A DNA stretch of 62,542 nucleotides, filler included, from Methanobacteriota archaeon (GTDB lineage Archaea > JACRDV01), in assembly GCA_024860865.1 (NCBI GenBank). It is 9 parts of 9 records of this genome, joined end to end, with 100 filler letters (N's around TTAATTAATTAA, not from the genome) between each part and the next. Parts side by side here need not be neighbours in the genome. Positions count along the whole stretch, not along the records: positions 1 to 8,419 come from JACRDV010000114.1; 8 more parts are not named here. One strand, 5' to 3'. This document shows, one piece after another, positions 223-58,073 of this stretch; within the stretch, counting starts at the first letter, position 1, and every line of letters begins with the position of its first letter. Under the pieces are notes generated by a model, which had not been told where the DNA came from, did not search any database, and worked only from the letters and a program-made list of their open reading frames with translations. The translations under genes were made by a program, and so were the position numbers.

Positions 223-252
223 GCTCACAGGTCCTATTGGTTCCCTATGAGC
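223..252 (-). promoter_or_regulatory. Archaeal-type SECIS element (3' UTR of hdrA-mvhD)
   Basis: Minus strand reads GCUCAUAGG-GAA-CC-AAUA-GG-A-CCUGUGAGC: 9-bp stem, GAA/A internal loop and short GC apical stem, directly after the mvhD stop. Confidence 0.85.
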
Positions 253-253
253 A

Positions 254-654
254 TCATCCTTTTAATGGATTTAAGCCCAATTTTTGGACCATTTCGGTCA
301 TTTCTTTTACCGCTTCAACGAATTTATCTGCTTCAGCTGAAGTTATGAAATATATGTTGACTCTATCGCTTCCAAGTCCAAGATCTGCGAGCAAGCGTTT
401 AGTTAAAAGCACTCGCCTTTCAGCTGCGATATTTCCGCTGGTATATCCACACTCGCCTTTCTTTCATCCCACAACCATAACTCCATCAGCGCCTTTTTCA
501 ATAGCCCTCAGCAACAATGGAACATCGATGATCCCTGTGCATGGAACTCTGATTATTCGAACAGCAGATGCATATTGAGCTCTTGAAACTCCTGCTAAAT
601 CAGCGGCAGCATAACCTCACTTATAACATGCAAAACAAATTATCTTTATCCCAA
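254..654 (-). CDS. mvhD: Hydrogenase iron-sulfur subunit D (MvhD/VhuD), selenoprotein with two Sec
   Basis: Not in ORF track. Manual translation IKIICFACYK-U-GYAAADLAGVSRAQY..RVPCTG..GADGVMVVG-U-KKGEC..LGLNPLKG; TGA at 617-619 and 464-466 match the Sec positions of methanococcal VhuD. Start ambiguous: TTG at 654 is one base out of frame, ATA at 649 is in frame. Confidence 0.9.
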
Positions 655-656
655 GT

Positions 657-3600
657 CTACACCTCGCTCTTTAGCAATGCTTCTAATTGAGCAATTAATT
701 GTTTATCTCTGTAATATCTTAATATCGCTGCTCCAGTTGGACAAGCGCCAGCACAGATTCCACAACCTTGGCAGAGAACTTCATTTACTTTTGCAAATCT
801 CTTTTTGTCAACTAATACCATTTCAATCGCACCATATGGGCAAACTCGTTTGCAGATCGCACATGATATGCAAGCATCTTTATCAATTATTGCTTTTATG
901 AGTTCGAGTTCAATTTGTCCCATTTTAAGAGGAATTAAAGCCGCAGATGCTGCTCCTTTAGCTTGTGCAACTGTATCGCTGATGTCCTTAGGAAATTGAG
1001 CACAACCGCATATGTAAATTCCTGATTTTCTAGTATCTAATGGGCCAAGTTTTGGATGGGACTCCTCGAAGAAGCCATCCGGTGAAAGAGTTAGCCCTAG
1101 TTTGTCAGCAAGCTCCTTTGTTCCAGGCGATGGTACAAGTGGGCAAGATAATACAACATAATCAGATTCAAGATCCAGCTCACTGCTGAGGAATTGGTCG
1201 AAAATTTTTAAAGATATTTTTTGCCCGTTAGGTTCAATACGAGGTGGATTATTAGAATGAAAATTTAAAAATGCAACTCCCATTTCTTGGGCTTTCAGGT
1301 AATACTCTTCCATCCCTCGGCCATTAGCAATAATGTCTTGATAACATACATAAACATCAGCGTGTGGATATTTCTCTTTAATAAGTTGTGCATTCTTCAA
1401 AGCAGTGTTGCAACATATTCTTGAGCAATATTTTCTCCCTTTAGTTTCACGGGCTCCAACGCATTGAATCATTGCGATAATTTTAGGATTTCCCAGTTTA
1501 TTTTGTTTTAATAACTGTTCTAATTGCAATTGCGTTATGATGTTTGGATGTGTTCCGAATCCATATTTTCCAATTGGAGTAAACTCTTGCGCTCCAGTAG
1601 CTACTATAATTACACCCGCTTTCAATTTGGTCCCATTTGGGCCTAATTTAACTTCAAAATCTCCAATATTACCTTTTACTTCATCTAAAGTGGTTGAGGT
1701 ATGCAGTATAATATTTGGGTCACTCTTTACCTGCTTAATTAGGGATTCAATTATTACAGCAGCATTTTCATTAGTTGGGGAGACTTTGTTCAATTTGGTT
1801 ACAATTCCTCCTACATCTTTTTGCATTTCTACAACATTCACTTTAAATCCTTGATTTGCAATTTCAAGTGCTGCTGTTAGTCCAGCTACTCCTCCTCCGA
1901 TAACTAATGCACTAGGTTCAACTGATACGATTTTTGACGGCACTATTTCTAAGAATTTAGCTCGAGCAACTGCAGCTCGCACAAGTTCTTTTGCCTTATC
2001 AGTTGCAGCTTTTCGGTCATACATATGAGTCCAAGAATCATGTTCCCGAATATTTGCCATTTCGAAGTAATATGGACTCAAGCCAGCTTGACGAAGAGCA
2101 TTTCTAAAAGTTTGCTCGTGCATTTTAGGTGAGCAGGCAGCAACAACTATGCGATTAAGATCTAGTTCCTTCACTTTTTCTCTAATTTTAGCCTGTGCAG
2201 GTTCAGAACACATAAAGAGGTCATCAGTAGAAAAAACGACATCTGGCAAAGACTTAGCATATTCAACGACTTTTGAGATGTCAACTGTTCCTGCTATATT
2301 TATGCCACAATGACAAACAAAAACTCCAATTCGTGCTTTATCAGGTGGTATTTCTTCGTACTCAACTTTCTTAACTTCCATAACTTTGGTAGGCTTTCCT
2401 AAGGAATTAGCAGCTGCACAGGCGGCAGCGCGTCCTTGAGCAACTGAATCTGGAATATCCTTTGGACCTTGGGCCAAACCAGCCAAAAATATGCCTTCCT
2501 TTGGTGTGGCAACTGGATTACTCTTTAAATTAAATTCTCTGAAGAAACCATCTTGAGCAAGCTCTATTCCAAGTTTTTTTGCCATTTCTGATTGATTTTT
2601 AGTTTTAATTAAGCCAGCTGATAACACAACTAGGTCGGCTTGTAATTCAATTACTTCATTGGTTATAGTGTTTATAGCTTTTACAAAGAGATTTTTTGTT
2701 AAAGAGTCTTCTATTATTTGCGCTACTCGTCCGCGAATATATTTTACCCCAAATTGTTGCTCTGCGCGCTTGCGATATTCTTCATAACCTTTACCATATG
2801 CTCTAAGATCCAAATAACATACGTAAACTTCGGCAGATGGATCATGTTGTTTAATTAGCTGAGCATTTTTAGTCGCAAACATACAACAAACGCGAGAACA
2901 GTATTGATTCGTTTTTTGATCGCGAGAACCGACACATTGAATAAAAATAACTCTTTTAGGCTCTTTTCCATCTGACAAGCGCTTTAGATTACCTTGTGTC
3001 GGCCCGGTAGGAGAGAGCATTCTTTCAAGTTGGAGAGTTGTAATTACATTTTCATAAACACCATAGCCATATTCTTTCTTAATGTGCGGATCGAACTCAT
3101 CAAATCCAGTTGCAACAATAATCGCATTTACATTTAAAGTAATTTCTTGTGATCGTTGGTCAAGATTTATTGCATCAGGGTCACAAACATCAATACACAG
3201 ACCGCAACCAATACAAAAATCCTGGTCAATTGTATATATTAGTGGAACTGCTTGCGGAAATGGAACATAAATTGCTTTTCGTACACCCAAACCTACTTCA
3301 AATTCATTTGGTATTTCTATTGGGCAAACTTCGGGGCACAAACCACAACCAGTGCACTTTTTTTCGTCAACATATCTGGACTTCTTAAGTATTTTAATAG
3401 CAAAATTACCTGCACTACTGGTTACTTCCTGCACTTCAGAGTAGGTGAGGAGATTGAGATTCGGATGGCGGGCTGCTTCAACTAATTTTGCGGCTAAAAT
3501 TCACATAGCACAGTCATCGGTAGGGAAAGTCTTATTTAGCTGAGCCATTCGGCCGCCTAAGCTTGGGCTTCTTTCAACTAGATGCACCTGATAGCCTTGG

Positions 3601-3668
3601 TTTGCTAAATCAAGCGCAGCCGTTATGCCTGCTATTCCTCCACCGATAACTAAAACCGATTTTTCCAT
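657..3668 (-). CDS. hdrA: Heterodisulfide reductase subunit A-like flavoprotein, two HdrA modules, Sec at codon 56 (1003 aa)
   Basis: ORF 657..3434 extends in frame through TGA 3501-3503 to ATG 3668 with a [39 protein letters not shown]; two GxGxxG motifs, two QCVG/CSRxCC motifs, ferredoxin motifs. Confidence 0.93.
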
Positions 3669-3749
3669 CTAATACCTCCAGCTTAAGCTCAATTTCTCCT
3701 TTGCTCATTTTCAGCAGCTGAAATCGAGTCGGGCTTGACCAACTCTCCT

Positions 3750-3774
3750 GTGCGATCCATATAGGTTCTCGCGC
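3750..3774 (-). promoter_or_regulatory. SECIS-like hairpin in hdrA 5' leader
   Basis: GCGCGA-GAA-CC-UAUAU-GG-A-UCGCAC; same GAACC-n-GGA core as the 223-252 element, shorter stem. Confidence 0.5.
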
Positions 3775-3803
3775 TTTCATAGCGATTTCAGACAGCTTTC
3801 TCC

Positions 3804-4070
3804 CTAGGATTGTTTGAGCTTTGCTGCCGATATTTTTATTAATGAACCCAATTCATCTGCGAGAGCTTGCATTTCATCCTTTAAGAATTCTTCTATGGTT
3901 TTTTCTGAGCTAAGTATTTTAGCCAGTTCCTTTAGAACTTTACATTTCCCTCTCACACTATGTAACTTCTGCTGAACAAATATCGGAGGCCCTTTAGCAA
4001 GCTCATCTTCAGCCACTTTTTCAAGGGTTTCTATGTCTTCTAACAACTCTTTTGCTTTCAATTCTACCAC
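3804..4070 (-). CDS. Hypothetical helical protein upstream of hdrA
   Basis: 88-aa ORF with protein-like composition, co-oriented with hdrA. Confidence 0.6.
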   Translation of the reverse strand: MVELKAKELLEDIETLEKVAEDELAKGPPIFVQQKLHSVRGKCKVLKELAKILSSEKTIEEFLKDEMQALADELGSLIKISAAKLKQS

Positions 4071-8419: not shown

Positions 8420-8519
8420 NNNNNNNNNNNNNNNNNNNNNNNNNNNNNNNNNNNNNNNNNNNNTTAATTAATTAANNNNNNNNNNNNNNNNNNNNNNNNN
8501 NNNNNNNNNNNNNNNNNNN
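8420..8519. other. Artificial contig linker (also 19479-19578, 25229-25328, 33831-33930, 37677-37776, 43497-43596, 52493-52592, 57974-58073)
   Basis: Identical 100-nt N-run/TTAATTAATTAA/N-run spacers with stops in all frames; genes broken on both sides. Confidence 0.98.
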
Positions 8520-11769: not shown

Positions 11770-12425
11770 GCTGGTGCCTCTGTTACTTCTCTAGCTGCAA
11801 GAATAGATTTGATTCTTTTAAGCCTAAAGAAATTTTCTCGCTCCATTTCATCCAACCGCATCTCGATATATTTAGTGGTATTCTCAAGTCTTGGAATAAC
11901 TATATACTCAAGGGCATTAACCCTCCGCTTCGTTTTTTCAATTTCTTCAGCCAATAGCTTAACTGAAGTTTCAATTTCAGCTAGCTTTAATATAGGTTCA
12001 ATTGAATCTTCAAATTTATCAGTCGCTTCATCGAGTTTTGCTGAGGTTTCGCGCAGTTCATAACCACGTTCAATAACAGTTTTCTTTTCTCGTTGAGCCT
12101 CGATTAGTGGGACTAATACACCCATTATGTTCTTATTCGCAAAATCAACGCCAACCGACTCTTCCACGCTCATTGCGGCTTCTTGAGTAGTAAGAACGCC
12201 CATTACACTTTCTGCGATAATTAAGTGCTCGAAGGCTTCTCTAAGTAGTCTTTCCACATTGCCTCTGATTCCCCTAGCTTCCTCTATAACATCAAAAAGT
12301 TCCATAACAAGGGCATCTCGTTTTTCTTTGAGCAATTTATGCCCTTTTCTAGCTAATTTAACCCGCTCTTTTAATTTTAAGAGTTCCATCCTAGTTGGAT
12401 TTACGCCTTCGATTAGCTCTGCCAC
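11766..12425 (-). CDS. atpD: A-type ATP synthase subunit D
   Basis: [30 protein letters not shown]. Confidence 0.97.
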
Positions 12426-15418
12426 TAAGCTTTGCCTCTATACGCAGGGTGATACTTCTTAATATATTTAACATCAATTCGTTTAAGCTCGCCCTCTGGC
12501 AACATAGATAAAATGTCCCAACCGATGTCCAGTGTTCTTTCAATGGATCGATCTTCATCTTTTCCTTGGTTTACAAATTCTCGTTCAAAGCGATCAGCAA
12601 GCTCTAAATATTTCTTGTCTTTTTCAGTAAGCGCTTCTTCACCAACTACTGCAACCAAATCTCGGAGGTCTCTTCCTTCTGCATAGGCAGAATAGAGCTG
12701 GTCTGAAACTCCCCTATGTTCTTCTCTAGTTTTGCCAGCACCTATGCCTTTAGCCATCAACCTGGACAGAGAAGGCAAGACATCTATCGGTGGATAAATT
12801 CCTCTCCTATGCAGTTCTCTACTCAACACTATTTGACCCTCACAGTTTGAAGAAATTATTCCATTTTCTATGACAAAATTACTTGTGGCAGGAATTGTAA
12901 TATCATAAACATAGCTACTTGATTCAGGAATTTCTTTTATTGAAACTATCTTATCTAAGATAAAGTAGTCTGATACCAACTTTTCCAAAATTTTGATGTA
13001 ATTATCTTTAACATTTACAACAGTCTCTATTGCATCTAACCATTTTCTAACTTTAAACTTAGAAGCTTCTTTCTTGTCATCTTCAAATTGTTTCAAATAA
13101 TTAGAATTATTTTCTATCTGTGAAAGTGATAAATTATACTTTTCTCTAATTTTTTTAATTAAAGTTTTGCACATTTTAGGTGCGACATCAAATCTTGTAT
13201 GTTTAATTTCTTTTTTAATTAACTCTTTCAAAAGTTTTTGCTTGTTAGAATGATTTACGTAGCTGAAGATATGTTTTGCCAAAATTTTAGCATAACCACT
13301 TGATATGGTTAATTCTTGAATTTTATTTCCTTTGCTGAAACTACCGGTTGATTGCTTCCCAACGTTAATAGTACTTGGAATTGCCAATCGTTTTAATAGT
13401 TGTTGCAATCTTTTTACTATTGTTACATCTTTTTCGCTTTTAAGTTTTTTTCTATATCTTATTCTATTAAATTCTAAATCACAATTCCCGTCCCCATCGA
13501 AATAACCGGCAAGAAAAGCTGTAATAAGATTTTCTTCAAGCTCAAACAAACCTTTAAAGTCTTTTGTTAAACCAAAATATTTAGCAATTTCTATTATAAA
13601 ATCACTAGTGGCATTTAATGTTGTAACATCATTTTCTGTCATCTTTTTCCATAAGGCTATTCCTGGAAATAACTTTTTGAATAATTCAGAGTATGCATTT
13701 AACAGATTTGAATCTTTGTTAGAGAAACTAACATGGTAACCCTTTTCAATGATTGAGCCATCTGACGTCAAAAGACCAAATAAATACATAAGATTTTCAT
13801 TTACATATTTCCAGTTTAATATGATCTTCCTTCCATTTCTTACACAAATAGCTAAGATATAATCTAAAATTTTATTTTTAGGAATTGTTAAGACGTCCAT
13901 TAATTTTTGGATTTCGTGTAAAGTAATAACATTCTTTGGATGTGTAATTCTCACATAACTTATGTTGAGTAACTTACATGCTTCTTTTATAGTTCCGAAT
14001 TTCATTTTCAATTCCTTTCTCAAATATTCTAAAAAATCTCTTTTTAAAGTTAGATAGAAAATCTTATCAGAATGGCCTATGATATCAAGTATATCTGTCC
14101 TTTTGGACTCAGCAACTTCTAATTTACTTAGAGAGAATATTCTATCATCAACCTTACAATTAGAAACAGGTATCATTTTTGGGCCTTCTAATGTATCAAC
14201 TAAAAATTTGTGATCCGGGGTAGCCTTTACGGTTATGCCCGAATCTAATGTCATTTTCAATAACTTTTTTGAATTGTTAGCTAGTTTCTGAGAGTCTGAA
14301 ACTTTGGAAAAAATTGGTTTTCCATTAACTGACAAAACTTTGATTTCTTTGTTAGTATTAAAGTCATTAACCAAATCGCTTATTTTAATTAGCTCACCTT
14401 TATTAACTATAACTTCTGTATCACCGTGTAAACAAATATAACCAGTTAAGTCTGGAATTGGATGAGTAATATCATCGTCAGGCATAGATAGAATTGGCAT
14501 TTGAGTGATCGAACCCTTTTTGCCGATAATTTTTCCAGCACGTTCATAGATTGTAGCCAAATCTGTGTACAGGTATCCTGGATAACCCCTTCTCCCGGGA
14601 ACTTCTTCACGCGCCGCTGAGATTTCACGAAGGCTTTCGCAATAATTCGTAAGATCGCTTAGAATAACTAAAACATGCATATCTTTTTCGTAAGCAAGAA
14701 ATTCAGCTGCTGTTAAAGCCATTCGCGGCGTAATCAATCGCTCAATTGCTGGATCGTCTGCTAGATTCAAAAACATAACTACTCGTTCAAGCGCACCTGT
14801 TCTCTCAAAATCTTTTTTAAAGAAACTCGCCTCTTCGTGAGTTATACCCATTGCACAAAAAACTACGGAAAAGACTTCTTCTTCACCTAAAACTTTTGCT
14901 TGCCGGGCAATTTGCGCAGCCACTTCATTATGAGGCAAGCCTGCTCCAGAAAATAGGGGTAATTTTTGGCCTCTCACTAGCGTATTCATGCCATCGATTG
15001 TTGAAATGCCAGTTTGAATAAATTCAGCTGGATATTTTCTAGCTGATGGATTTATGGGAGCTCCATGAATATCTCTTGTCTCCTCTGGAATAATTTTTGG
15101 ACCGCCATCAATTGGATTGCCTGTGCCGTCAAAAATTCTGCCCAACATCTCATCTGATACTGCTAGTTTTACTGTTTCGCCAGTGAACCTAACCTTTGTC
15201 TTGCTGGTATCAATTCCAGCAGTTCCTTCGAAAACTTGAATGGCAGCTAAATCTTTTCTTGCATCTAAGACCTGCCCCCGTCTCTCTTCACCATCTGGTG
15301 TTTCAATTTCAACTAATTCTCCATAGCTTACTCCTTCAACACCTCTTACTATCATTAATGGTCCGCTTACTTCAGTAACAGTAGTATATTCTCTAACTTT
15401 TATAGTAACCAAATTCAT
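12425..15418 (-). CDS. atpB: A-type ATP synthase subunit B with intein (467 aa mature)
   Basis: [32 protein letters not shown]|intein|CEGQIVL. Confidence 0.96.
12845..14434 (-). mobile_element. Intein (530 aa) with LAGLIDADG endonuclease in AtpB
   Basis: Starts CLHGDT, block [17 protein letters not shown] and [10 protein letters not shown], ends VYDITI..IISSN followed by Cys. Confidence 0.93.
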
Positions 15419-15420
15419 CC

Positions 15421-18400
15421 CTACTCTGCAGCAGTTTTTTCAATTAGCGTATCAAATTGAGTGCTTAATTTCTGGTGAATTTCTTTAATTTTCGCCTCAG
15501 CTTCATTTTCAGGTATTGTTTTCATCCTAGCAATTTCATCCTTAATTGGTAGCTTAACTATATCAGAAATTTGAACTCCTTTGTTAATAGCTTCTACACC
15601 TTTCTCATAGAACATCAAAATTGTTTTTAACATTGATATCTGCTTTTTAGCTGAGCAATATGTATCGACTGGATGGTAAGCATTTTGCTGTAAAAAGTCT
15701 TCTCTAATCATTCGCGCTCCTTCAAGAGTAATTCTCTCTCTCTCAGGCAATGCATCTGGACCAACTAGCATCACAATTTCTTTTAATTCTGATTCTTTCT
15801 GCAATATCTCCATAGCCCTTCCGCGGAGCATTCTCCAATCTTCTTTAACTGCTTCTTTCCACCAACTCTCAACTGTATCCAGATAAAGTGAATAACTTGT
15901 CAACCAATTGATGGCCGGGAAATGTCTGCGATCAGCAAGTGAGGAGTCCAATGCCCAGAAACACTTTGTAATCCTTAGAGTGCCTTGAGTAACTGGCTCT
16001 GAAAAATCACCTCCAGGAGGCGAAACTGCGCCAACAACTGTGACTGAACCTATCCTTTCATTCGAACCAAGGGTGACAACACGCCCAGCGCGTTCATAAA
16101 AATCAGCTAATCTTGAAGCCAAATAAGCCGGATAACCTTCTTCGCCTGGCATCTCTTCGAGTCTGCCAGATATCTCTCTCATTGCCTCAGCCCAACGGGA
16201 AGTTGAATCTGCCATCAAAGCAACATCATAGCCCATATCTCTGAAGTACTCACAGATAGTGATTGCAGTATAAACGCTTGCCTCCCTAGCAGCTACTGGC
16301 ATGTTTGAAGTGTTTGCGATTAAAGAGGTGCGATGCATCAGTGGTTTTCCACTTTTAGGATCGACCAATTCAGGGAACTCCTCTAGAACTTCTGTCATTT
16401 CATTTCCACGTTCACCGCAGCCGACGTAAACGATTACATCAGCATCTGCCCACCTGGCTAGCTGGTGCTGTGAAACTGTATTATGCAGAATCATCGGAGT
16501 ATTTCCACCTACAAAATTATGAGTTTGTGGAACAGTTATATCATAAACGTCAGACTCTACATCAATAACTTTAATTTCTATTGTTTCATCGCAGAAAACA
16601 TAATCCAAAGATTGTGCAAAATCTAATAAATGTTCCAATCGCACTTGCTTGACTATTCTTTGAAATGTTTGTACAGTTAAATTCTGGTCAACATAATAGC
16701 CCGCTGTTGAAATCCCTTCTTTTTCTAAAACAAAAGGTTTCGTATTTCCAAGTATCTTTTTAAACAAGGCGCTAGTCATCGGAACTATATCTGTCGAATT
16801 AAAGCAGAATTCTTTGTTAAAGAAAGGATGTATTTTAATAACTTCACGTGCTGTAATAAAAATCCTATAATAAGTTCGTCCCTTTACTATTCTTTCTCTT
16901 ATTCTAAATAAAACCCCTGTCCTTAAAAGCATATATGAAATACCATCTTTCATGTCATTGCTTGCAGTAGAAATTTCAATTTCATCATCAGTTAGGCTTC
17001 CATCGCCGCTTATATAAGATATTAAAAATGCTTTTATCACTGAATTAGGAGATGTTAATAAAATGTCCGGAGGCTTAACATTTCTTGATTTTTTCTTTTT
17101 TGGGTATCCTAACGAAACTAGTAGGTCAACGAGCGCTTTACTATTTACCTTAATAGCCTCAACTGTCCTTTCCCAACTATCTTTAGAGTCAAGATTAAAT
17201 AATTTTTTGAGTAGATAACTTACTCTGTCTCTTAGTTTCTTATTCCTATTAAAGAAAACTACAGTCCCCCTGCCTCTTACCATACCATCCGACATTAAGA
17301 AACCTAATAATGCTGCTAATTCTTCTGTCAGGTATTTTGGAACAGTAATGGGTTTAGATTGCCTTTCCGCTTTTATAAGTTGGAATTCTATTTCAGTTTT
17401 TGTTAGATTCTCTAGTTTTCTTATAAACGATATATGTGGCAGATTTTTCTTGGAATAATAACCTAGCAAATTATGGTAGGATACATCTAATAGTTTTGCA
17501 AATTCTTTTTTTGTTATTTTGTTCTTGTTGGAGATATATTCAGAAATTATTATACGCATCTTCTCGAGTGCATCACTATCAGCAATTCTACAATCGAAAT
17601 TAATATCAATATTAGAGTAGTCAGAATTTAATTCAAGTTTTCGGGGCGAAATTATAAAATCTCCTACTTTTAAGTTTTCTGCCTCTTTCTCTACAATTTT
17701 CAAATTGTCGCCTAAAGAAAAAAGCTTGTGTAATGGAGTTAACTTTATTTTTCTACCAGATCTGGTTTTTATTTCAATAAGTCTAGATGTTTTTCCCTTA
17801 TAGACCCGGGTGGCATATGTAGGGGATATCTTTTTACCATCAAAGGTATAAACAAGCAAAGGCTTTAAAAGTCTTATTACAGTTTCGTATTCCGAAATTT
17901 TTACAACTTCTCCTACAGCTGAATCAAAAACATCTTTGATTGTCTTTAATTGATTATTAGCTAAAATTTTTGTGTCGCCAGTGACACATTTTCCGCTGCC
18001 GAATGGGCCAGGTATTGCAGCCGTTCCACCCTTTGCTACTGGGAAAAATGTATCATAAATGCGTTGGCCAGTAACTAAAGGAATACTTGGGTCGAGTTTT
18101 CTTCTAAATGGTCTACCTCTTCTCACTGGCCAATGGTGCATCATTTGAACTTCTTTTTTTCCAGTTGTAGTGCTAATCACTGCTACAGTATCCTCGACAG
18201 TGTAGTCACCCTTTTCCGCGATCTCAACTATCTTTCCTGAGATTCCGGGTGGTACAAGAATTCGATGTTCAACAATTTCTGTTTCTTGAACTTTGCCTAA
18301 AAAATCTCCTTCTTGAATCTTATCACCTTTTTTAACTAAGGGCACAAAAGTCCACTTTTTATTTCGATCAAGTGCAGGCGCTTCAACTCCACGTTTTATA

Positions 18401-18705
18401 AAATTCCCAGATTTCAACTTAATTACTTCAAGCGGCCTTTGGATTCCATCAAAAATTCTATTCAATATACCAGGACCGAGCTCAACGGAAAGCGGTCGTC
18501 CAGTTCCCAGTACCTCTTCGCCTGGTTTGATTCCAACTGTTTCTTCATAAACCTGAATGCTCGCCCTATCTTCAACTAACTCAATTATTTCACCAATTAG
18601 TTTTTGCTCGCCAACCCTCACCATCTCGAACATTTTTGCTCCTCTCATTCCTTCAGCTACAACCAATGGACCAGTTATTCTCACTATTTTTCCTTTTACT
18701 ACCAA
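15421..18705 (-). CDS. atpA: A-type ATP synthase subunit A with intein (591 aa mature)
   Basis: GPFGSGK|intein|[29 protein letters not shown]. Confidence 0.97.
16480..17988 (-). mobile_element. Intein (503 aa) with LAGLIDADG endonuclease in the AtpA P-loop (VMA-b-type site)
   Basis: [41 protein letters not shown] followed by Thr. Confidence 0.95.
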
Positions 18706-19478: not shown

Positions 19479-19579
19479 NNNNNNNNNNNNNNNNNNNNNN
19501 NNNNNNNNNNNNNNNNNNNNNNTTAATTAATTAANNNNNNNNNNNNNNNNNNNNNNNNNNNNNNNNNNNNNNNNNNNNA

Positions 19580-25070: not shown

Positions 25071-25328
25071 AATTAACAAATTCATAGTATAAGGATAAAA
25101 CGAGAAAAACTTATAAGAAACAAATTCTATGAAAAGGCATTTGCTTCTAAATATTATGCTCATGAAATGAAGATTAAATTTGAATCGGGTGTTACCTTGC
25201 CCAATGATTCACAACCCAAGAGAGGAACNNNNNNNNNNNNNNNNNNNNNNNNNNNNNNNNNNNNNNNNNNNNTTAATTAATTAANNNNNNNNNNNNNNNN
25301 NNNNNNNNNNNNNNNNNNNNNNNNNNNN

Positions 25329-28859: not shown

Positions 28860-29249
28860 ATGCCAAATGAAATTTTAAAAAATCAAATAATACACAAAAT
28901 TAAGAATTTCTTATATAATCGAGATGAAATTACTTTCGCTTACCTATTCGGTTCTATTTCAGAGAACAATAAATTCAACGATGTAGACTTAGCAATTTAT
29001 GCTAACAAGGAAGTAGACAAATGGTATGATATCAAGCTCTCTCGAGAGTTGGAGAAGGAGATTAAATTCCCAGTGGATATAGTATTTCTAAACAAAGCTT
29101 CTGATTCCCTGACATACCGTGCTTCTAAGGGCATACTTATTAAAAACACTGATGATGATTTTAGGGTTAATTTTATTACAAAAGTATGGAAGAAGTATTT
29201 TGATTTTAGACCAAAACTTTATGAATTTGCTAAAGAGGCTACAACATGA
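28860..29249 (+). CDS. MNT nucleotidyltransferase antitoxin
   Basis: YLFGS..NDVDLAI..VDIV. Confidence 0.9.
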   Translation: MPNEILKNQIIHKIKNFLYNRDEITFAYLFGSISENNKFNDVDLAIYANKEVDKWYDIKLSRELEKEIKFPVDIVFLNKASDSLTYRASKGILIKNTDDDFRVNFITKVWKKYFDFRPKLYEFAKEATT

Positions 29250-29668
29250 GAGTTAACAAAGATAAACTAGCCTCGATAACTGGAGAAGTGAAGAAAGCGC
29301 TTGGAGTTTTAAAGGAATACCAGGTAGAAGATGAAGAAACTCTCATACAAGATTTAAAAGCCTTAGGGGCAATAAAATATTACTTTATTCTAGCAATTGA
29401 AGCGTGCGTTGATATTTGCAATCATATTATAGCCAAGGAATATTCTGAAGCGCCTGAGAGTTATGCTGATTGTTTTAGAATTCTTAGAGAAAAAGGGATT
29501 ATTTCAAATGAGCTCGCTGAGAATTTAATGAATATGGCTAAGTTTAGAAATTTACTCGTTCATCTTTACTCTAAAGTAGATAATAAGAGACTATTTAGTA
29601 TATTGAAGGAAAATCTATCTGATATTGAAAAATATCTCGCTGAAATAAACCAGAAATATCTTAAATAA
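29246..29668 (+). CDS. HEPN (DUF86) RNase toxin
   Basis: FRNLLVHLY (RX4HXY); overlaps MNT by ATGA. Confidence 0.92.
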   Translation: MRVNKDKLASITGEVKKALGVLKEYQVEDEETLIQDLKALGAIKYYFILAIEACVDICNHIIAKEYSEAPESYADCFRILREKGIISNELAENLMNMAKFRNLLVHLYSKVDNKRLFSILKENLSDIEKYLAEINQKYLK

Positions 29669-33830: not shown

Positions 33831-33930
33831 NNNNNNNNNNNNNNNNNNNNNNNNNNNNNNNNNNNNNNNNNNNNTTAATTAATTAANNNNNNNNNNNNNN
33901 NNNNNNNNNNNNNNNNNNNNNNNNNNNNNN

Positions 33931-37407: not shown

Positions 37408-37776
37408 AAGTTCACCCTACAATAAGATTAATTACTAGAATTGGTAAATATAATTTTGGTAAATATAATTTTGGAACTCAACGTTTATAAAACCATCCCC
37501 TAGCATATAGCAACCCAATTAAAGTTATAGAGGCAAAAACTAAAATATTACCAGTAAACAATAATGAGATTGAAAGCTGTATATAACTTAGATACCAAAT
37601 CCAAACTCCCGCTCCTAAAAAGCAAATTAGAATAACTGTAAAAGTTAATCTATATGGCTTAACTTTTAAAACTCTANNNNNNNNNNNNNNNNNNNNNNNN
37701 NNNNNNNNNNNNNNNNNNNNTTAATTAATTAANNNNNNNNNNNNNNNNNNNNNNNNNNNNNNNNNNNNNNNNNNNN

Positions 37777-43496: not shown

Positions 43497-43596
43497 NNNN
43501 NNNNNNNNNNNNNNNNNNNNNNNNNNNNNNNNNNNNNNNNTTAATTAATTAANNNNNNNNNNNNNNNNNNNNNNNNNNNNNNNNNNNNNNNNNNNN

Positions 43597-51494: not shown

Positions 51495-52492
51495 TTATTG
51501 TTTTATATTAAATTCTTTTGTGTATTTTTCAACAATATCAAAAAAAGCATCGTGAAGGTTTGTCAATCCCTCTGAGCTTAGTCCATAAGTCGAAAGTTTA
51601 ACATGCTTGCTCAATCCACGGTGTAATCCAATAAATCCGTGCTTCTCCATTTCTTCAGCCAAGAAGAATCCCTTGCGCTTATGGTGCTTTGAGATTTCCC
51701 AAAAAATTGGAGTTTCCAAATGAATCAAATGGTGGTTATGAGGTCTTTCTCCAATAATCATTATGCCTTGGATATTTTCTATTTCTTGTATAAACCATCC
51801 GATTTTTTTTAACTCTTCACCCCAAGTTTTTGTGCGTTCTACCACATATGGAAATGATAACATTGAACTAATTAGTGGGATACCACCAACGCTGCATCCA
51901 AAAACATTTGGAATTTTTTTTCCAAAGACTCGGCCAGTCCAATCTGGTTTTATTGTTGATGGAGCAAATGCCTTTTTTCCCCACTCATAAGAGGTTATTA
52001 AAAAACCAAGCGGTCCCAGAGATGCCATTGATTTGTGAGCAGATATTGTCAAAAAATCAGCCTTAAAATCTCGCATATTAACTGGCATGACCCCGCCAGT
52101 ATATGCTGCATTCACCATGTAAGGTATTCCATAATCCTCTGCTATTTTCCCAACTTCTTTTACTGGATTAAGATTGCCATAATATGGCTCAACGTGAGTT
52201 AAAACTAAGAGAGCTGGAAGTTTTTCACTTTGGCTTTTAACTTGTTCGATTTTTTCCACAAAGTCCTCTGTCCTCACTTTATATTCTGGATACCCTGTGT
52301 TCGTAGGTTCCACTAGTTGTAGGCCAGCCATTTCAGCAGCAATTGCGGTTGAATAATGGCATAAAGGATCTGCCACTATTATGTTTGTGTAGTCTTTTGA
52401 TCCTTCAACTTTCAAGCTTTCGGCTATTGTTCTAACAACTGCGAATTGGGCTGCGCGGCATCCAAATGTATGTTCTGCGACATCTCCGCCAA
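51495..52492 (-). CDS. pscS: O-phosphoseryl-tRNA:Cys-tRNA synthase (5' partial)
   Basis: GCRAAQFAV, HYST..AAE, YGNL, N.AY, SAHKSMAS, GCS, KLSTYGL. Confidence 0.88.
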
Positions 52493-52592
52493 NNNNNNNN
52501 NNNNNNNNNNNNNNNNNNNNNNNNNNNNNNNNNNNNTTAATTAATTAANNNNNNNNNNNNNNNNNNNNNNNNNNNNNNNNNNNNNNNNNNNN

Positions 52593-55028: not shown

Positions 55029-55136
55029 AATATCCCTCCGAAAACTTTGAAATCAGTTTCTTTAAGTACTCTTTTTTCTTTAAGACATTATAATTTCTAA
55101 TAACTAAATAAAAAGATTGTGCTAGTTGGGTTAATA

Positions 55137-57806
55137 ATGAGAGTTTCTGAGCTGGTAAAATATGGAGCTTCTGAGCAATTAATTAAAGCCTTGGAGAATC
55201 AAGGAATTCAGGAGCTTTATCAACCCCAAGCTTTAGCGGTTAAAGCCGGCCTTCTTTTCGCTAATGACTCATTTGTTATAGCAGCCCCAACGGCCTCTGG
55301 GAAAACACTTGTGTCTGAAATGCGCATTTTGAAGACAGTTCTCGAAGAGAGAGGCAAGGCATTATATTTAGTTCCTTTAAGAGCACTTGCCAGCGAAAAA
55401 TTTGAAGATTTTTCCGAAAAATACGCACCGCTTGGAATAAAAGTTGCAATGACTACTGGCGAGCTTGATAGCGCAGATCCTTGGTTAGGTCGGTACGATA
55501 TTGTTTTTGTTACAAATGAAAAAATGGACAGTTTAATCAGACATCAAGCTCCTTGGATCAACGAAGTTTCGTTAGTTGTTGCTGATGAGATACATTTATT
55601 AGTAGACCCTCATAGAGGCCCAACGCTTGAGGTTGTTTTAGCTCGGTTGCGCCAGCTGAATCCTAACCTTCGAATTTTGGCTCTAAGTGCTACGATAAAA
55701 AATGCAAGAGAAATAGCAGACTGGCTTGAGGCAAAACTTATTGAAAGCACTTGGCGCCCCGTGGTTTTGCGCGAAGGGGTTTGTTACGGACAAAACATCT
55801 CATTTAATGATGGCACTCAGAAAGAGATCAAACTTCTAACTAGAAATGATGCAATTAATTTAGCTCTTAATACAATTGAAGAAGGCGGTCAAGCTTTAAT
55901 TTTTGTTAATACTCGAAGGGCAACAGAAAACATAGCAGAGTTAGCTAGTGGGCCAGTTTCTAAGGTGCTTTCGCTACCTGAAAAAAGAGCACTAGAAGGA
56001 GCTGCAGATGAAATTTTAAAAGCTTTGCCTGAACCAACTAGAATTTGCAAAAAATTGGCTGATGCGGTTAGAAGCGGGGTAGGTTTTCATCATGCTGGCC
56101 TTCATTCAAAGCAGAAAAAAATTGTTGAAAATAATTTTAGAGCAAATAAGTTGAAGCTGGTGATAGCAACGCCTACCCTGGCTATGGGCCTTAACCTTCC
56201 TTCGCGGCGGGTAATTATCAGAGATTGGTTGCGATATGAACCAGCGTATGGAATGACTTCAATTCCAGTTTTAGAGATAAAACAGATGTGTTTGCCATAT
56301 TCGGCAAGGCTTCTGATTGAGAATGGAGAATTAGTACCAATAGGAGAAATAGTTGAGGAAAAAATGAATAAAAAAGTGTTTTCATTCGATCACTCCCAAG
56401 GGAAATTTACTTTTAAGAAAATTTCTGGCTATTTTTTGAGAGAAACATATGAGTTAATTGAAATACAAACTAATGAAGGACCTATATTACAAATCACTTC
56501 GGAGCATCCAGTTTTAGTAAAAGAAGGAGGATGGATACCAGCAGGAGATTTGGGGGCAGATAGCAAGATCGGATACTTAAGAGAATTTTGCTACTTTGCA
56601 GATATTGGTCCTGTTAGATGGTTAAACATTAAAAAACTTAAGAAGATTAATGGGAAATTTAAAGTTTACAATATCTCTGTAGAGGATACGGAAAATTACG
56701 TAGCAGATAATTTTATCCTTCATAACTGCGGCCGAGCTGGAAGGCCAAAGTTTGATCGCTATGGTGAAGCAGTTTTAATTGCTAAAAGTCAAAAAGACCA
56801 AGAATTTTTATTTGAGAATTACATCCAGGCAGAGCCAGAAAAGATCTGGTCAAAGCTTGCAAACGAGGCTGCTTTAAGGACTCATGTTCTAGCATCTATT
56901 GCAACTTTATTTACAAAAACAAAAAGCGAGCTTTGGGATTTTGTAGATAAAACATTTTTCGCAAAGCAGTATGATCCGGCTACAATCTCTAACGCAATTG
57001 AGAATATCTTACAATTCTTAGAGGAAGAAGCTATGATTGAAAGAAGAAAAGGCAAATTAATAGCAACTGATTTTGGCCGAAGGGTTGCCCAGCTCTATAT
57101 TGATCCAAGCACAGGCGTCGTTTTGCGAGATGCACTTCGAATTGCGGAGGAAAAAATTCCAACCCATTTCTCTTTTTTACATGCAATTTGTCATACTCCA
57201 GATATGCAAGTCCTTTACTTAAGAAGAGGAGAGCACGAAAAATTTGAGCAAGTTGTGTTAGAATATAAAGATGAATTTCTTTTTCCAATTCCAGATTCTT
57301 GGAGACACCCAAGTGCCTATGAACTTTTTATTGCTGAAACAAAGACCGCTGAAATATTTCAAGATTGGATAAATGAATCTCGAGAAGATGACTTAGTTGA
57401 AAAATATGGAATTGGACCCGGAGATATTCGGGCGTTAATTGGGCTTGGTGATTGGTTATTATACTCGCTGCAAGAGTTGGGGAAAATTTTCAAAACTCGA
57501 AAATCTCGTGGCCTAATAGCAACACTTCGAAAGCGCGTAATTTATGGAGTTCGGAATGAGTTGTTAGAATTGGTGGCTTTAGAAAATATTGGTCGAATTA
57601 GAGCAAGGAATCTCTATCGCGCTGGCTATAAAACTTTAGACCAGTTAAAGGAAGCAAAGATAGAAGAGCTTGCAAAAGTACCAACAATTGGGCCAGGAAT
57701 TGCTTTAAGAATCAAAAAACAACTGGGAGAAGAAGTTAAGCCAGAAATAATTGAAGAGAAAAAACTGGCTGAGAGCCGCCAGACTTCGATTTTTAACTTC
57801 GAGTAG
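55137..57806 (+). CDS. hel308: Ski2-like DNA helicase Hel308 with mini-intein
   Basis: PTASGKT, DEIH, LSAT, HHAGL, QM|intein|CGRAGRP, RIRAR, HhH. Confidence 0.93.
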   Translation: MRVSELVKYGASEQLIKALENQGIQELYQPQALAVKAGLLFANDSFVIAAPTASGKTLVSEMRILKTVLEERGKALYLVPLRALASEKFEDFSEKYAPLGIKVAMTTGELDSADPWLGRYDIVFVTNEKMDSLIRHQAPWINEVSLVVADEIHLLVDPHRGPTLEVVLARLRQLNPNLRILALSATIKNAREIADWLEAKLIESTWRPVVLREGVCYGQNISFNDGTQKEIKLLTRNDAINLALNTIEEGGQALIFVNTRRATENIAELASGPVSKVLSLPEKRALEGAADEILKALPEPTRICKKLADAVRSGVGFHHAGLHSKQKKIVENNFRANKLKLVIATPTLAMGLNLPSRRVIIRDWLRYEPAYGMTSIPVLEIKQMCLPYSARLLIENGELVPIGEIVEEKMNKKVFSFDHSQGKFTFKKISGYFLRETYELIEIQTNEGPILQITSEHPVLVKEGGWIPAGDLGADSKIGYLREFCYFADIGPVRWLNIKKLKKINGKFKVYNISVEDTENYVADNFILHNCGRAGRPKFDRYGEAVLIAKSQKDQEFLFENYIQAEPEKIWSKLANEAALRTHVLASIATLFTKTKSELWDFVDKTFFAKQYDPATISNAIENILQFLEEEAMIERRKGKLIATDFGRRVAQLYIDPSTGVVLRDALRIAEEKIPTHFSFLHAICHTPDMQVLYLRRGEHEKFEQVVLEYKDEFLFPIPDSWRHPSAYELFIAETKTAEIFQDWINESREDDLVEKYGIGPGDIRALIGLGDWLLYSLQELGKIFKTRKSRGLIATLRKRVIYGVRNELLELVALENIGRIRARNLYRAGYKTLDQLKEAKIEELAKVPTIGPGIALRIKKQLGEEVKPEIIEEKKLAESRQTSIFNFE
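56289..56726 (+). mobile_element. Mini-intein (146 aa, no endonuclease) in helicase motif VI
   Basis: CLPYSA..TSEHP..VYNISV..NY..ILHN followed by Cys. Confidence 0.93.
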
Positions 57807-58073
57807 ATCTGAGTAATTATGAAAAAGATGTTTCAACTTGCAAAAATTGCAGTTTTTACTGAGAAAATTGCAGTCAACTTTTTTTAAACAAATTGAACCG
57901 CGAAATAATTTTATACAAATCATTTTAATAAAATTCAACTTCACTTTTTTGTTAGTTGCAAAAAAAAAATAAANNNNNNNNNNNNNNNNNNNNNNNNNNN
58001 NNNNNNNNNNNNNNNNNTTAATTAATTAANNNNNNNNNNNNNNNNNNNNNNNNNNNNNNNNNNNNNNNNNNNN

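Follow-up and report, generated by a model that had tools for sequence, protein, structure and literature searches.

A probable hdrA-vhuD selenoprotein operon with one shared SECIS hairpin in an uncultured archaeon

The window analyzed here, which is the whole stretch of 62,542 bases, consists of nine contigs of a metagenome bin, and the minus strand of the first contig carries two adjacent genes, hdrA and vhuD (also called mvhD), which very probably constitute a bicistronic selenoprotein operon of an uncultured archaeon. A preliminary description of this DNA had placed three in-frame TGA codons in the two genes (3501-3503, 617-619, and 464-466) and a hairpin behind them (223-252), and all of these coordinates proved right. 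The kind of operon is known: it is an archaeal hdrA-vhuD pair in which VhuD has two selenocysteine (Sec) residues and the genes share a selenocysteine insertion sequence (SECIS) in the 3′ untranslated region (3′ UTR), as in Asgard archaea, and a Sec-containing HdrA and a double-Sec VhuD are also found in Methanococcales. Four details are unusual: HdrA is a Sec-containing fused dimer although its host is an archaeon, the SECIS is a hybrid, the hdrA UGA and the SECIS are 3.25 kb apart, and vhuD lacks a canonical start codon, although the supplementary lists of Huang 2024, Mariotti 2016, and Sun 2021 may already include this metagenome-assembled genome (MAG) or this form of SECIS.

The hdrA gene occupies 657-3668 on the minus strand (1003 codons), with an ATG start at 3668-3666, a TAG stop at 659-657, and a GGAGGT sequence (3679-3674) located 5 nt upstream of the ATG. 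When TGA is translated as Sec (U), the protein is unbroken over its 1003 residues and contains a single U at residue 56 (TGA at 3501-3503), in the motif C53-A-M-U56, and its matches to the Pfam and NCBIfam HdrA-type models run without a break across the TGA. Among all sequences in the PDB, the best match is 9sfi_A (E value of 3e-182 over residues 2-420), which is HdrA of the Hdr-Vhu-Fwd complex of Methanococcus maripaludis and has X, that is selenocysteine, at the position aligned to U56 (..DDCAM[X]ILA..). This residue is Sec197 of the M. maripaludis protein, which, according to the 2026 paper on 9SFI, forms a Cys-Sec pair beside the flavin adenine dinucleotide (FAD).

At 1003 residues, the protein departs from the canonical single-unit layout of HdrA, in which an N-terminal Fe-S domain, the core, and a C-terminal ferredoxin domain make up approximately 650 amino acids, and it is best described as a fused dimer of two modules. 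Module 1 (residues 1-433; 2370-3668, minus strand) consists of a thioredoxin-reductase-like FAD core with an inserted ferredoxin domain and the Cys/Sec pair; in the alignment to 9sfi_A it lacks both the N-terminal Fe-S domain and the C-terminal ferredoxin domain, and it is about 62% identical to residues 143-562 of that chain (262 of 420 columns, counted by hand). Module 2 (residues 434-1003; 660-2369, minus strand) comprises an N-terminal Fe-S domain, a second FAD core, and a C-terminal 2x[4Fe-4S] ferredoxin domain, and it aligns with the whole of HdrA except for the inserted ferredoxin, with no Cys at the site of the redox pair. The closest full-length relatives in a search of 1.84 billion representative proteins are 44-52% identical, and those with names come from MAGs of Thermoprotei, Helarchaeota, Thermoplasmata, and Hydrothermarchaeota. 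Of the 18 relatives from other archaeal MAGs that were checked, 11 show the motif, in every case as C-x-x-C and not C-x-x-U.

The second gene, vhuD, lies at 254-649 on the minus strand and has 131 codons if it starts at ATA 649-647; its stop codon is TGA at 256-254. The translated protein is a full-length FlpD (Pfam PF02662, profile positions 1-123 of 123, E value of 3.2e-45), and the two internal TGA codons correspond to U11 (617-619, minus strand, in C-Y-K-U-G-Y) and U62 (464-466, minus strand, in V-V-G-U-K). Its best match in the PDB is 9sfi_K (E value of 1.4e-43, about 55% identity by hand count), in which both aligned positions are occupied by X (..CYQ[X]GY.. and ..AG[X]K..). Because U56 of HdrA and both U residues of VhuD align with X in 9sfi_A and 9sfi_K, all three TGA codons stand at known Sec sites, just as had been supposed from the sequence. 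Among the closest full-length MvhD homologs (P0123, P0126, P0127, P0129, P0136, P0139, and P0128), several have Arg at the first Sec/Cys site (C-x-x-R-G-Y). In the sequence given for P0128, Trp stands at the two Sec sites, probably through the translation of TGA under another code by a pipeline. A metagenome scan with a pattern demanding Cys or Arg at the first Sec site, by which Sec forms are unreachable, returned relatives of at most 56% identity.

Both genes suffer under standard gene calling. With translation table 11, the open reading frame (ORF) of hdrA is cut to 925 amino acids starting from GTG 3434, plus a stub of 55 amino acids, so that the FAD-binding N-terminus is lost, and a piece of 52 amino acids is all that is left of vhuD. 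The truncation of hdrA had been foreseen correctly.

The candidate SECIS spans 219-257 on the minus strand. Its hairpin (252 to 223; GCTCATAGGGAACCAATAGGACCTGTGAGC) starts one base past the vhuD stop in the 3′ UTR, and it is flanked by AUGA and a U on the 5′ side, the AUGA (257-254) containing the vhuD stop codon itself, and by CAAC on the 3′ side. The stem has 9 bp, of which the last two are G-C (GG/CC), and it is followed by GAA, two C-G pairs (CC/GG), an AAUA loop, and a single A opposing the GAA. Over 48 nt, the fold has an energy of -15.8 kcal/mol and a z score of -3.32, and one of 200 shuffled sequences was as stable. In a scan of both strands of the 62.5-kb window for a strict GAA/A motif with two helices, this hairpin was the single match, and a relaxed scan of the minus strand of the hdrA contig returned the same site only; a second strict match that appeared after removal of the N letters is a junction artifact and was rejected. 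The 9-bp version of the motif is expected 0.23 times per window by chance, as estimated from 100 Markov-1 random sequences.

The features of this hairpin can be compared with those defined by mutation. According to Peiter et al. 2025, a functional Methanococcus SECIS consists of a G-C-clamped basal stem, a kink-turn-like GAA/A motif with two invariant adenines, an apical G-C clamp (only two C-G pairs in fruA), and a loop of 4-6 nt that are mostly A/U. Every mutationally defined feature is present in the hairpin at 252 to 223, including the G-C clamp, GAA/A, the S-S pairs, and the A/U loop, which upholds its designation as an archaeal SECIS. The surroundings of the hairpin also resemble elements described elsewhere. 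An [A/G]UGA_[G/A]A signature has been reported for the hdrA/frhD SECIS elements of Methanococcales and Methanopyrus, with an AUGA_AA core variant in those of Asgard archaea, and the arrangement of the Asgard lokiSECIS type I, a 9-bp stem with AUGA ahead of it and GA or AA behind it, is found here as AUGA-U, 9 bp, then C-AA. The contrast drawn earlier with the eukaryote-like SECIS of Asgard archaea is therefore softer than stated, since the hairpin also has the AUGA..AA core of both Asgard and Methanococcales elements. By itself the AUGA/9-bp/AA feature is unspecific, as a permissive eukaryote-like SECIS scan for it gave 45 matches in the window, and an 11-nt apical loop beginning with a run of A (or G[U/G]AAA) is absent; the apical 12 nt read GAACC... 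and fold as the GAA/A motif. Rfam returned no match in the window, and lax thresholds applied to 120-330 gave three chance-level matches with E values of 3.3-9.6.

From the two vhuD UGA codons the distance downstream to the SECIS is 214 and 367 nt, and from the hdrA UGA it is about 3,251 nt. Within the 60 nt after the hdrA UGA there is no stable hairpin, the fold energy being -2.1 kcal/mol. The sequences following the vhuD UGAs fold at -12.9 and -10.7 kcal/mol, with z scores of +0.76 and +0.23, which is no better than shuffled sequences.

TGA is an ordinary stop codon in the rest of the window. The 40 ORFs with family support end in TGA (12), TAA (21), or TAG (7), and across their 13,798 sense codons in-frame TGA occurs in hdrA and vhuD only, and in none of the other 38. 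Twelve TGA-bridged frames are listed in the window; six of the 11 outside hdrA overlap an opposite-strand ORF with a family match by comparison of coordinates, and the one of these 11 that was scanned has no family match. The region is further covered, at 90-100% likeness, by contigs of four public sequencing runs from four studies (groundwater, hot spring, and unlabeled metagenomes), and no RNA data are among the runs listed as carrying it. We considered the 40 best-supported strain differences, beyond which there are 66 more. Inside hdrA and vhuD lie 39 of these 40, comprising 32 synonymous and seven non-synonymous changes that are mostly conservative, and some of them precede the hdrA TGA or fall between the two TGAs of vhuD. 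In the contig of run X2, all five differences over 150-741 are identified, and they leave both vhuD TGAs and the hairpin untouched. Given that TGA is a normal stop elsewhere, that in-frame TGA is confined to hdrA and vhuD, and that strain changes are mainly synonymous, the three TGAs reflect site-specific recoding, and neither errors nor a changed genetic code.

In the mechanism that we propose, a single mRNA would carry the three UGA codons, to be read as selenocysteine by archaeal machinery (Sec-tRNA and aSelB/EFSec), and the one hairpin in the 3′ UTR would guide Sec insertion at all of them. The UGA stop of vhuD, which sits inside the AUGA of the SECIS, would be too near the hairpin to be recoded. 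Homology shows the first product to be a fused-dimer HdrA, in which the first FAD module keeps C-x-x-U beside the presumably bifurcating flavin while the second has lost the pair, and the second product to be a VhuD [2Fe-2S] adaptor with two Sec residues. HdrA and VhuD together would form the electron-bifurcating core of an Hdr-type complex. The input and output modules are not encoded on the 8.4-kb contig: a Pfam/NCBIfam scan of its ORFs revealed no HdrB or HdrC, no vhuGAU genes are on it, and none of the scanned ORFs is bamBCD/GHI-like, the contig ending 222 nt past the hairpin.

Several observations weigh against this interpretation. VhuD, scored with Cys written for Sec, reaches 193.3 bits with the NCBIfam VhuD model, which has a cut-off of 215. 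From the in-frame TAA upstream (about 679-677) to the conserved N-terminus of VhuD, no ATG, GTG, or TTG codon occurs. A tRNA scan found no tRNA in the window, and SelB, PSTK, SepSecS, and SelD are not among the 52 protein sequences of the window scanned against Pfam. The 3.25-kb span between the hdrA UGA and the SECIS is longer than those described, which are about 2 kb as inferred for the hdrA-vhuD pairs of Lokiarchaeota and 88-679 nt as tested, and found to work, in M. maripaludis. The hairpin has no covariation support; the only other copies seen come from near-identical strains. Finally, retention of the hdrA TGA is proven for the X1 contig only, and X1 may be the source sample; for the X2 contig, 33 of the 34 differences over 2296-3800 are among the 40 considered, and the X3 contig likewise has one outside them. 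It is nevertheless likely that the X2 strain has kept the hdrA TGA.

As for the missing start codon, ATA at 649-647 is the likeliest start of vhuD. It would yield M-K-I-I-C-F-A-C, resembling the M-K-M-N-I-I start of homolog P0128; a GAGGTG sequence (665-660) that overlaps the end of hdrA lies 10 nt upstream, and the contig of the X2 strain has the same ATA. One possibility is that vhuD is translated by re-initiation after the hdrA stop, 8 nt upstream. A frameshift fusion of hdrA and vhuD was considered and rejected, as one hot-spring contig (run X5) has a 1-nt insertion at 656 between the two genes; the extra base shows that the frame register of hdrA and vhuD is not conserved between strains.

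We weighed three other explanations of the TGA codons. One is that the UGAs are read through or recoded without selenium, for instance when a near-cognate or suppressor tRNA inserts Cys or Trp, the hairpin being a mere structure at the transcript end. The window, with neither a tRNA nor an Rfam match and with no Sec machinery shown, leaves room for it, and P0128, written with W at both sites, illustrates how such genes are translated by pipelines. We regard it as unlikely, though, because the hairpin bears a full SECIS signature and is more than a stem, the sites are exactly those of characterized selenoproteins, and TGA is a frequent genuine stop in the bin. Errors of assembly or sequencing, or the decay of the genes into pseudogenes, might be suspected in a low-coverage MAG of short contigs, and the depth of the public-run contigs over the region is only about 2-14. 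This is very improbable, however, considering that independent contigs come from several studies, that the X2 contig keeps both vhuD TGAs, that synonymous substitutions outnumber non-synonymous ones by 32 to seven, and that three errors falling on exactly three known Sec sites would be implausible.

It could also be argued that the contig is bacterial, or holds a recent transfer from bacteria, and relies on bacterial SECIS elements just downstream of each UGA. Bacteria commonly encode a fused-dimer HdrA with MvhD behind it, and the 80 best loci (L001-L080) of a representative-genome scan with HdrA all have bacterial titles, at 39-43% identity. TGA occupies the HdrA site in 70 of these loci, the remaining 10 having Cys, and the first MvhD site in 72 of 77, and the folds after the vhuD UGAs come near the bacterial median of -12.8 kcal/mol. 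These bacterial modules of fused-dimer Sec-hdrA and mvhD, very common as they are, are presumably under-annotated. We find a bacterial origin hardly credible all the same. The neighboring genes are archaeal. The 70 bacterial Sec-hdrA genes fold after the UGA at -10.2 to -20.1 kcal/mol (median -13.5), and hairpins follow the UGAs in the bacterial loci, unlike the hdrA UGA here; the vhuD folds, as noted above, do no better than their shuffles. At the second MvhD site, 74 of 75 bacterial loci have Cys and one has TGA, whereas archaeal VhuD has Sec there, so that the double-Sec VhuD encoded here is the archaeal form. Furthermore, module 1 is much closer to M. maripaludis HdrA, at about 62% identity, than the whole protein is to its bacterial counterparts. 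We therefore favor the archaeal selenoprotein operon.

The identity of the host is harder to establish. In a 2026 review, archaeal Sec is confined to Methanococcales, Methanopyrales, and Asgard archaea, and Sec use has already been reported for most Asgard classes. EF-1alpha, encoded on another contig (23808-25070), has a best match of 65-66% identity among 5.8 billion proteins. The ten best matches have no organism names, and the 13 organism-named matches in the best 120 belong to DPANN, Altiarchaeota, and Archaeoglobi, with none from Asgard archaea or Methanococcales. Its branch length in a quick tree is 0.27, against a median of 0.033; either the lineage is very isolated or it evolves fast. 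For the NOL1/NOP2 methylase of the hdrA contig, no match exceeds 58% identity, and its 21 organism-named matches comprise 19 from Asgard archaea and two from Archaeoglobi. In quick trees of EF-1alpha and NOL1, the window proteins have long branches and fall into no named clade with good support; database look-ups of two unexplained ORFs gave mixed archaeal phyla, and comparisons of the thermosome and EF-1alpha with the PDB are euryarchaeote-like (Thermococcus, then Methanococcus, then Thermoplasma, then Sulfolobus). The markers thus conflict on the Asgard affinity of the host.

We conclude that the host belongs to neither Methanococcales nor Methanopyrales and that none of its close relatives has been sequenced; it may represent a deep Asgard lineage, another lineage, or a mixed bin. 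The preliminary description had likewise judged the genome not to be a typical Methanococcales one, and the markers exclude that order, but its argument from HDAC and JAB/SAMP genes rests on other contigs of the bin. Our literature search found nothing linking selenocysteine with Altiarchaeota, or SepSecS or PSTK with archaeal MAGs, and what it found on Hydrothermarchaeota in the context of Sec concerned pyrrolysine instead. Only tentatively, then, can it be suggested that the host stands outside Methanococcales, Methanopyrales, and the Sec-using Asgard classes, and that a hybrid SECIS, in which GAA/A is combined with an AUGA..AA core, acts on three UGAs across 3.25 kb, one of them in a fused-dimer HdrA.

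The coverage of the MAG is low, and its nine short contigs, each 3.7-11 kb in length and with a GC content of 34-39% over the whole window, are joined by N44-TTAATTAATTAA-N44 linkers at 8420-8519, 19479-19578, 25229-25328, 33831-33930, 37677-37776, 43497-43596, 52493-52592, and 57974-58073. Since these are separate contigs, gene context across the linkers is no synteny, and the bin may be mixed. The operon is on the first contig (1-8419), for which the entry of its methylase in a protein collection likewise records a length of 8419, and family scans identified the other genes there as archaeal, including FKBP26, a Nip7-like PUA protein, and the NOL1/NOP2 methylase. An ORF at 3804-4070, whose translation looks by eye like a charged helical protein, may share a transcript with hdrA. 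Other contigs encode an A-type ATPase, aEF-1alpha, a thermosome, Hel308, and RPA. The A and B subunit genes of the A-type ATP synthase (12425-15418 and 15421-18705) both contain inteins with LAGLIDADG domains, and a further intein is present in the Hel308-like helicase (55119-57806). At 28860-29668, a nucleotidyltransferase (Polbeta/MNT) lies beside a HepT-like RNase, likely as a toxin-antitoxin module. A SepSecS-like Pfam match at 51495-52415 was rejected; it is SepCysS (Sep-tRNA:Cys-tRNA synthase) cut by the contig end, which implies tRNA-dependent cysteine synthesis in the bin.

The forms of SECIS differ between methanogens and Asgard archaea, and the relation of these forms and their hosts is debated (Huang et al.). 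The present operon joins both, with an Asgard-style shared SECIS behind hdrA-vhuD that has the GAA/A and G-C clamps of the Methanococcus style and an AUGA core, in a host outside Methanococcales for which very large protein collections contain no close relative. If the interpretation holds, the working range of an archaeal SECIS would extend to about 3.25 kb, and a BamE-like fused-dimer HdrA, a common bacterial selenoprotein, would be a selenoprotein in Archaea as well. Were the lineage of the host novel, it would provide independent evidence of the ancestral archaeal form of SECIS and would bear on whether methanogens obtained the Sec trait from Asgard archaea. The operon also illustrates clearly what standard gene callers can miss, here the FAD-binding N-terminal part of hdrA and almost the entire vhuD gene.

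Among known systems, HdrA and VhuD of M. maripaludis (9sfi chains A and K) have Sec at the identical three positions, and the two VhuD proteins share the motifs C-Y-x-U-G-Y and G-U-K, whereas the M. maripaludis HdrA has about 658 amino acids and the fused dimer here has 1003. The SECIS elements of hdrA and vhuD in Methanococcales resemble the one described here in having the GAA/A motif and an AUGA ahead of the stem. In M. maripaludis, hdrA and vhuD have one SECIS each, in contrast to the single shared element here. The HdrA-VhuD pairs of Asgard archaea (Lokiarchaeota and others) agree with the present operon in gene order, the very short intergenic gap, and the one SECIS just after VhuD, as well as in the 9-bp stem preceded by an AUGA able to overlap a UGA stop, the AUGA..AA core, and the stop codons, since their HdrA ends in UAA or UAG (UAG here) and their VhuD may end in UGA (UGA here). 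They differ in the apical part of the SECIS, which is an A-rich 11-nt loop in Asgard archaea and a GAA/A kink-turn-like motif with two C-G pairs here, and, according to Huang et al., the eaSECIS-like structures of Asgard archaea are almost always devoid of S-S pairs and of the AUGA motif. Also differing from the Asgard pairs, HdrA here is a single-Sec fused dimer, with a UGA-SECIS span of 3.25 kb as opposed to about 2 kb.

The architecture of the protein has its counterpart in BamE of class II benzoyl-CoA reductase. In the published account, BamE is a fused HdrA dimer in which only the first flavin bifurcates, and its adaptor BamF carries Sec. BamE and the present HdrA have in common a Cys pair in the first FAD module and none in the second, and BamE/BamF and the bacterial tandem loci share with the operon an MvhD-type adaptor that is encoded directly behind HdrA and has Sec at its first conserved site; BamF is more than 100 amino acids longer than MvhD, whereas VhuD here has 131. 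The Cys-type fused-dimer HdrA proteins of other archaeal MAGs have the same architecture, and the one from Helarchaeota is fused to MvhD.

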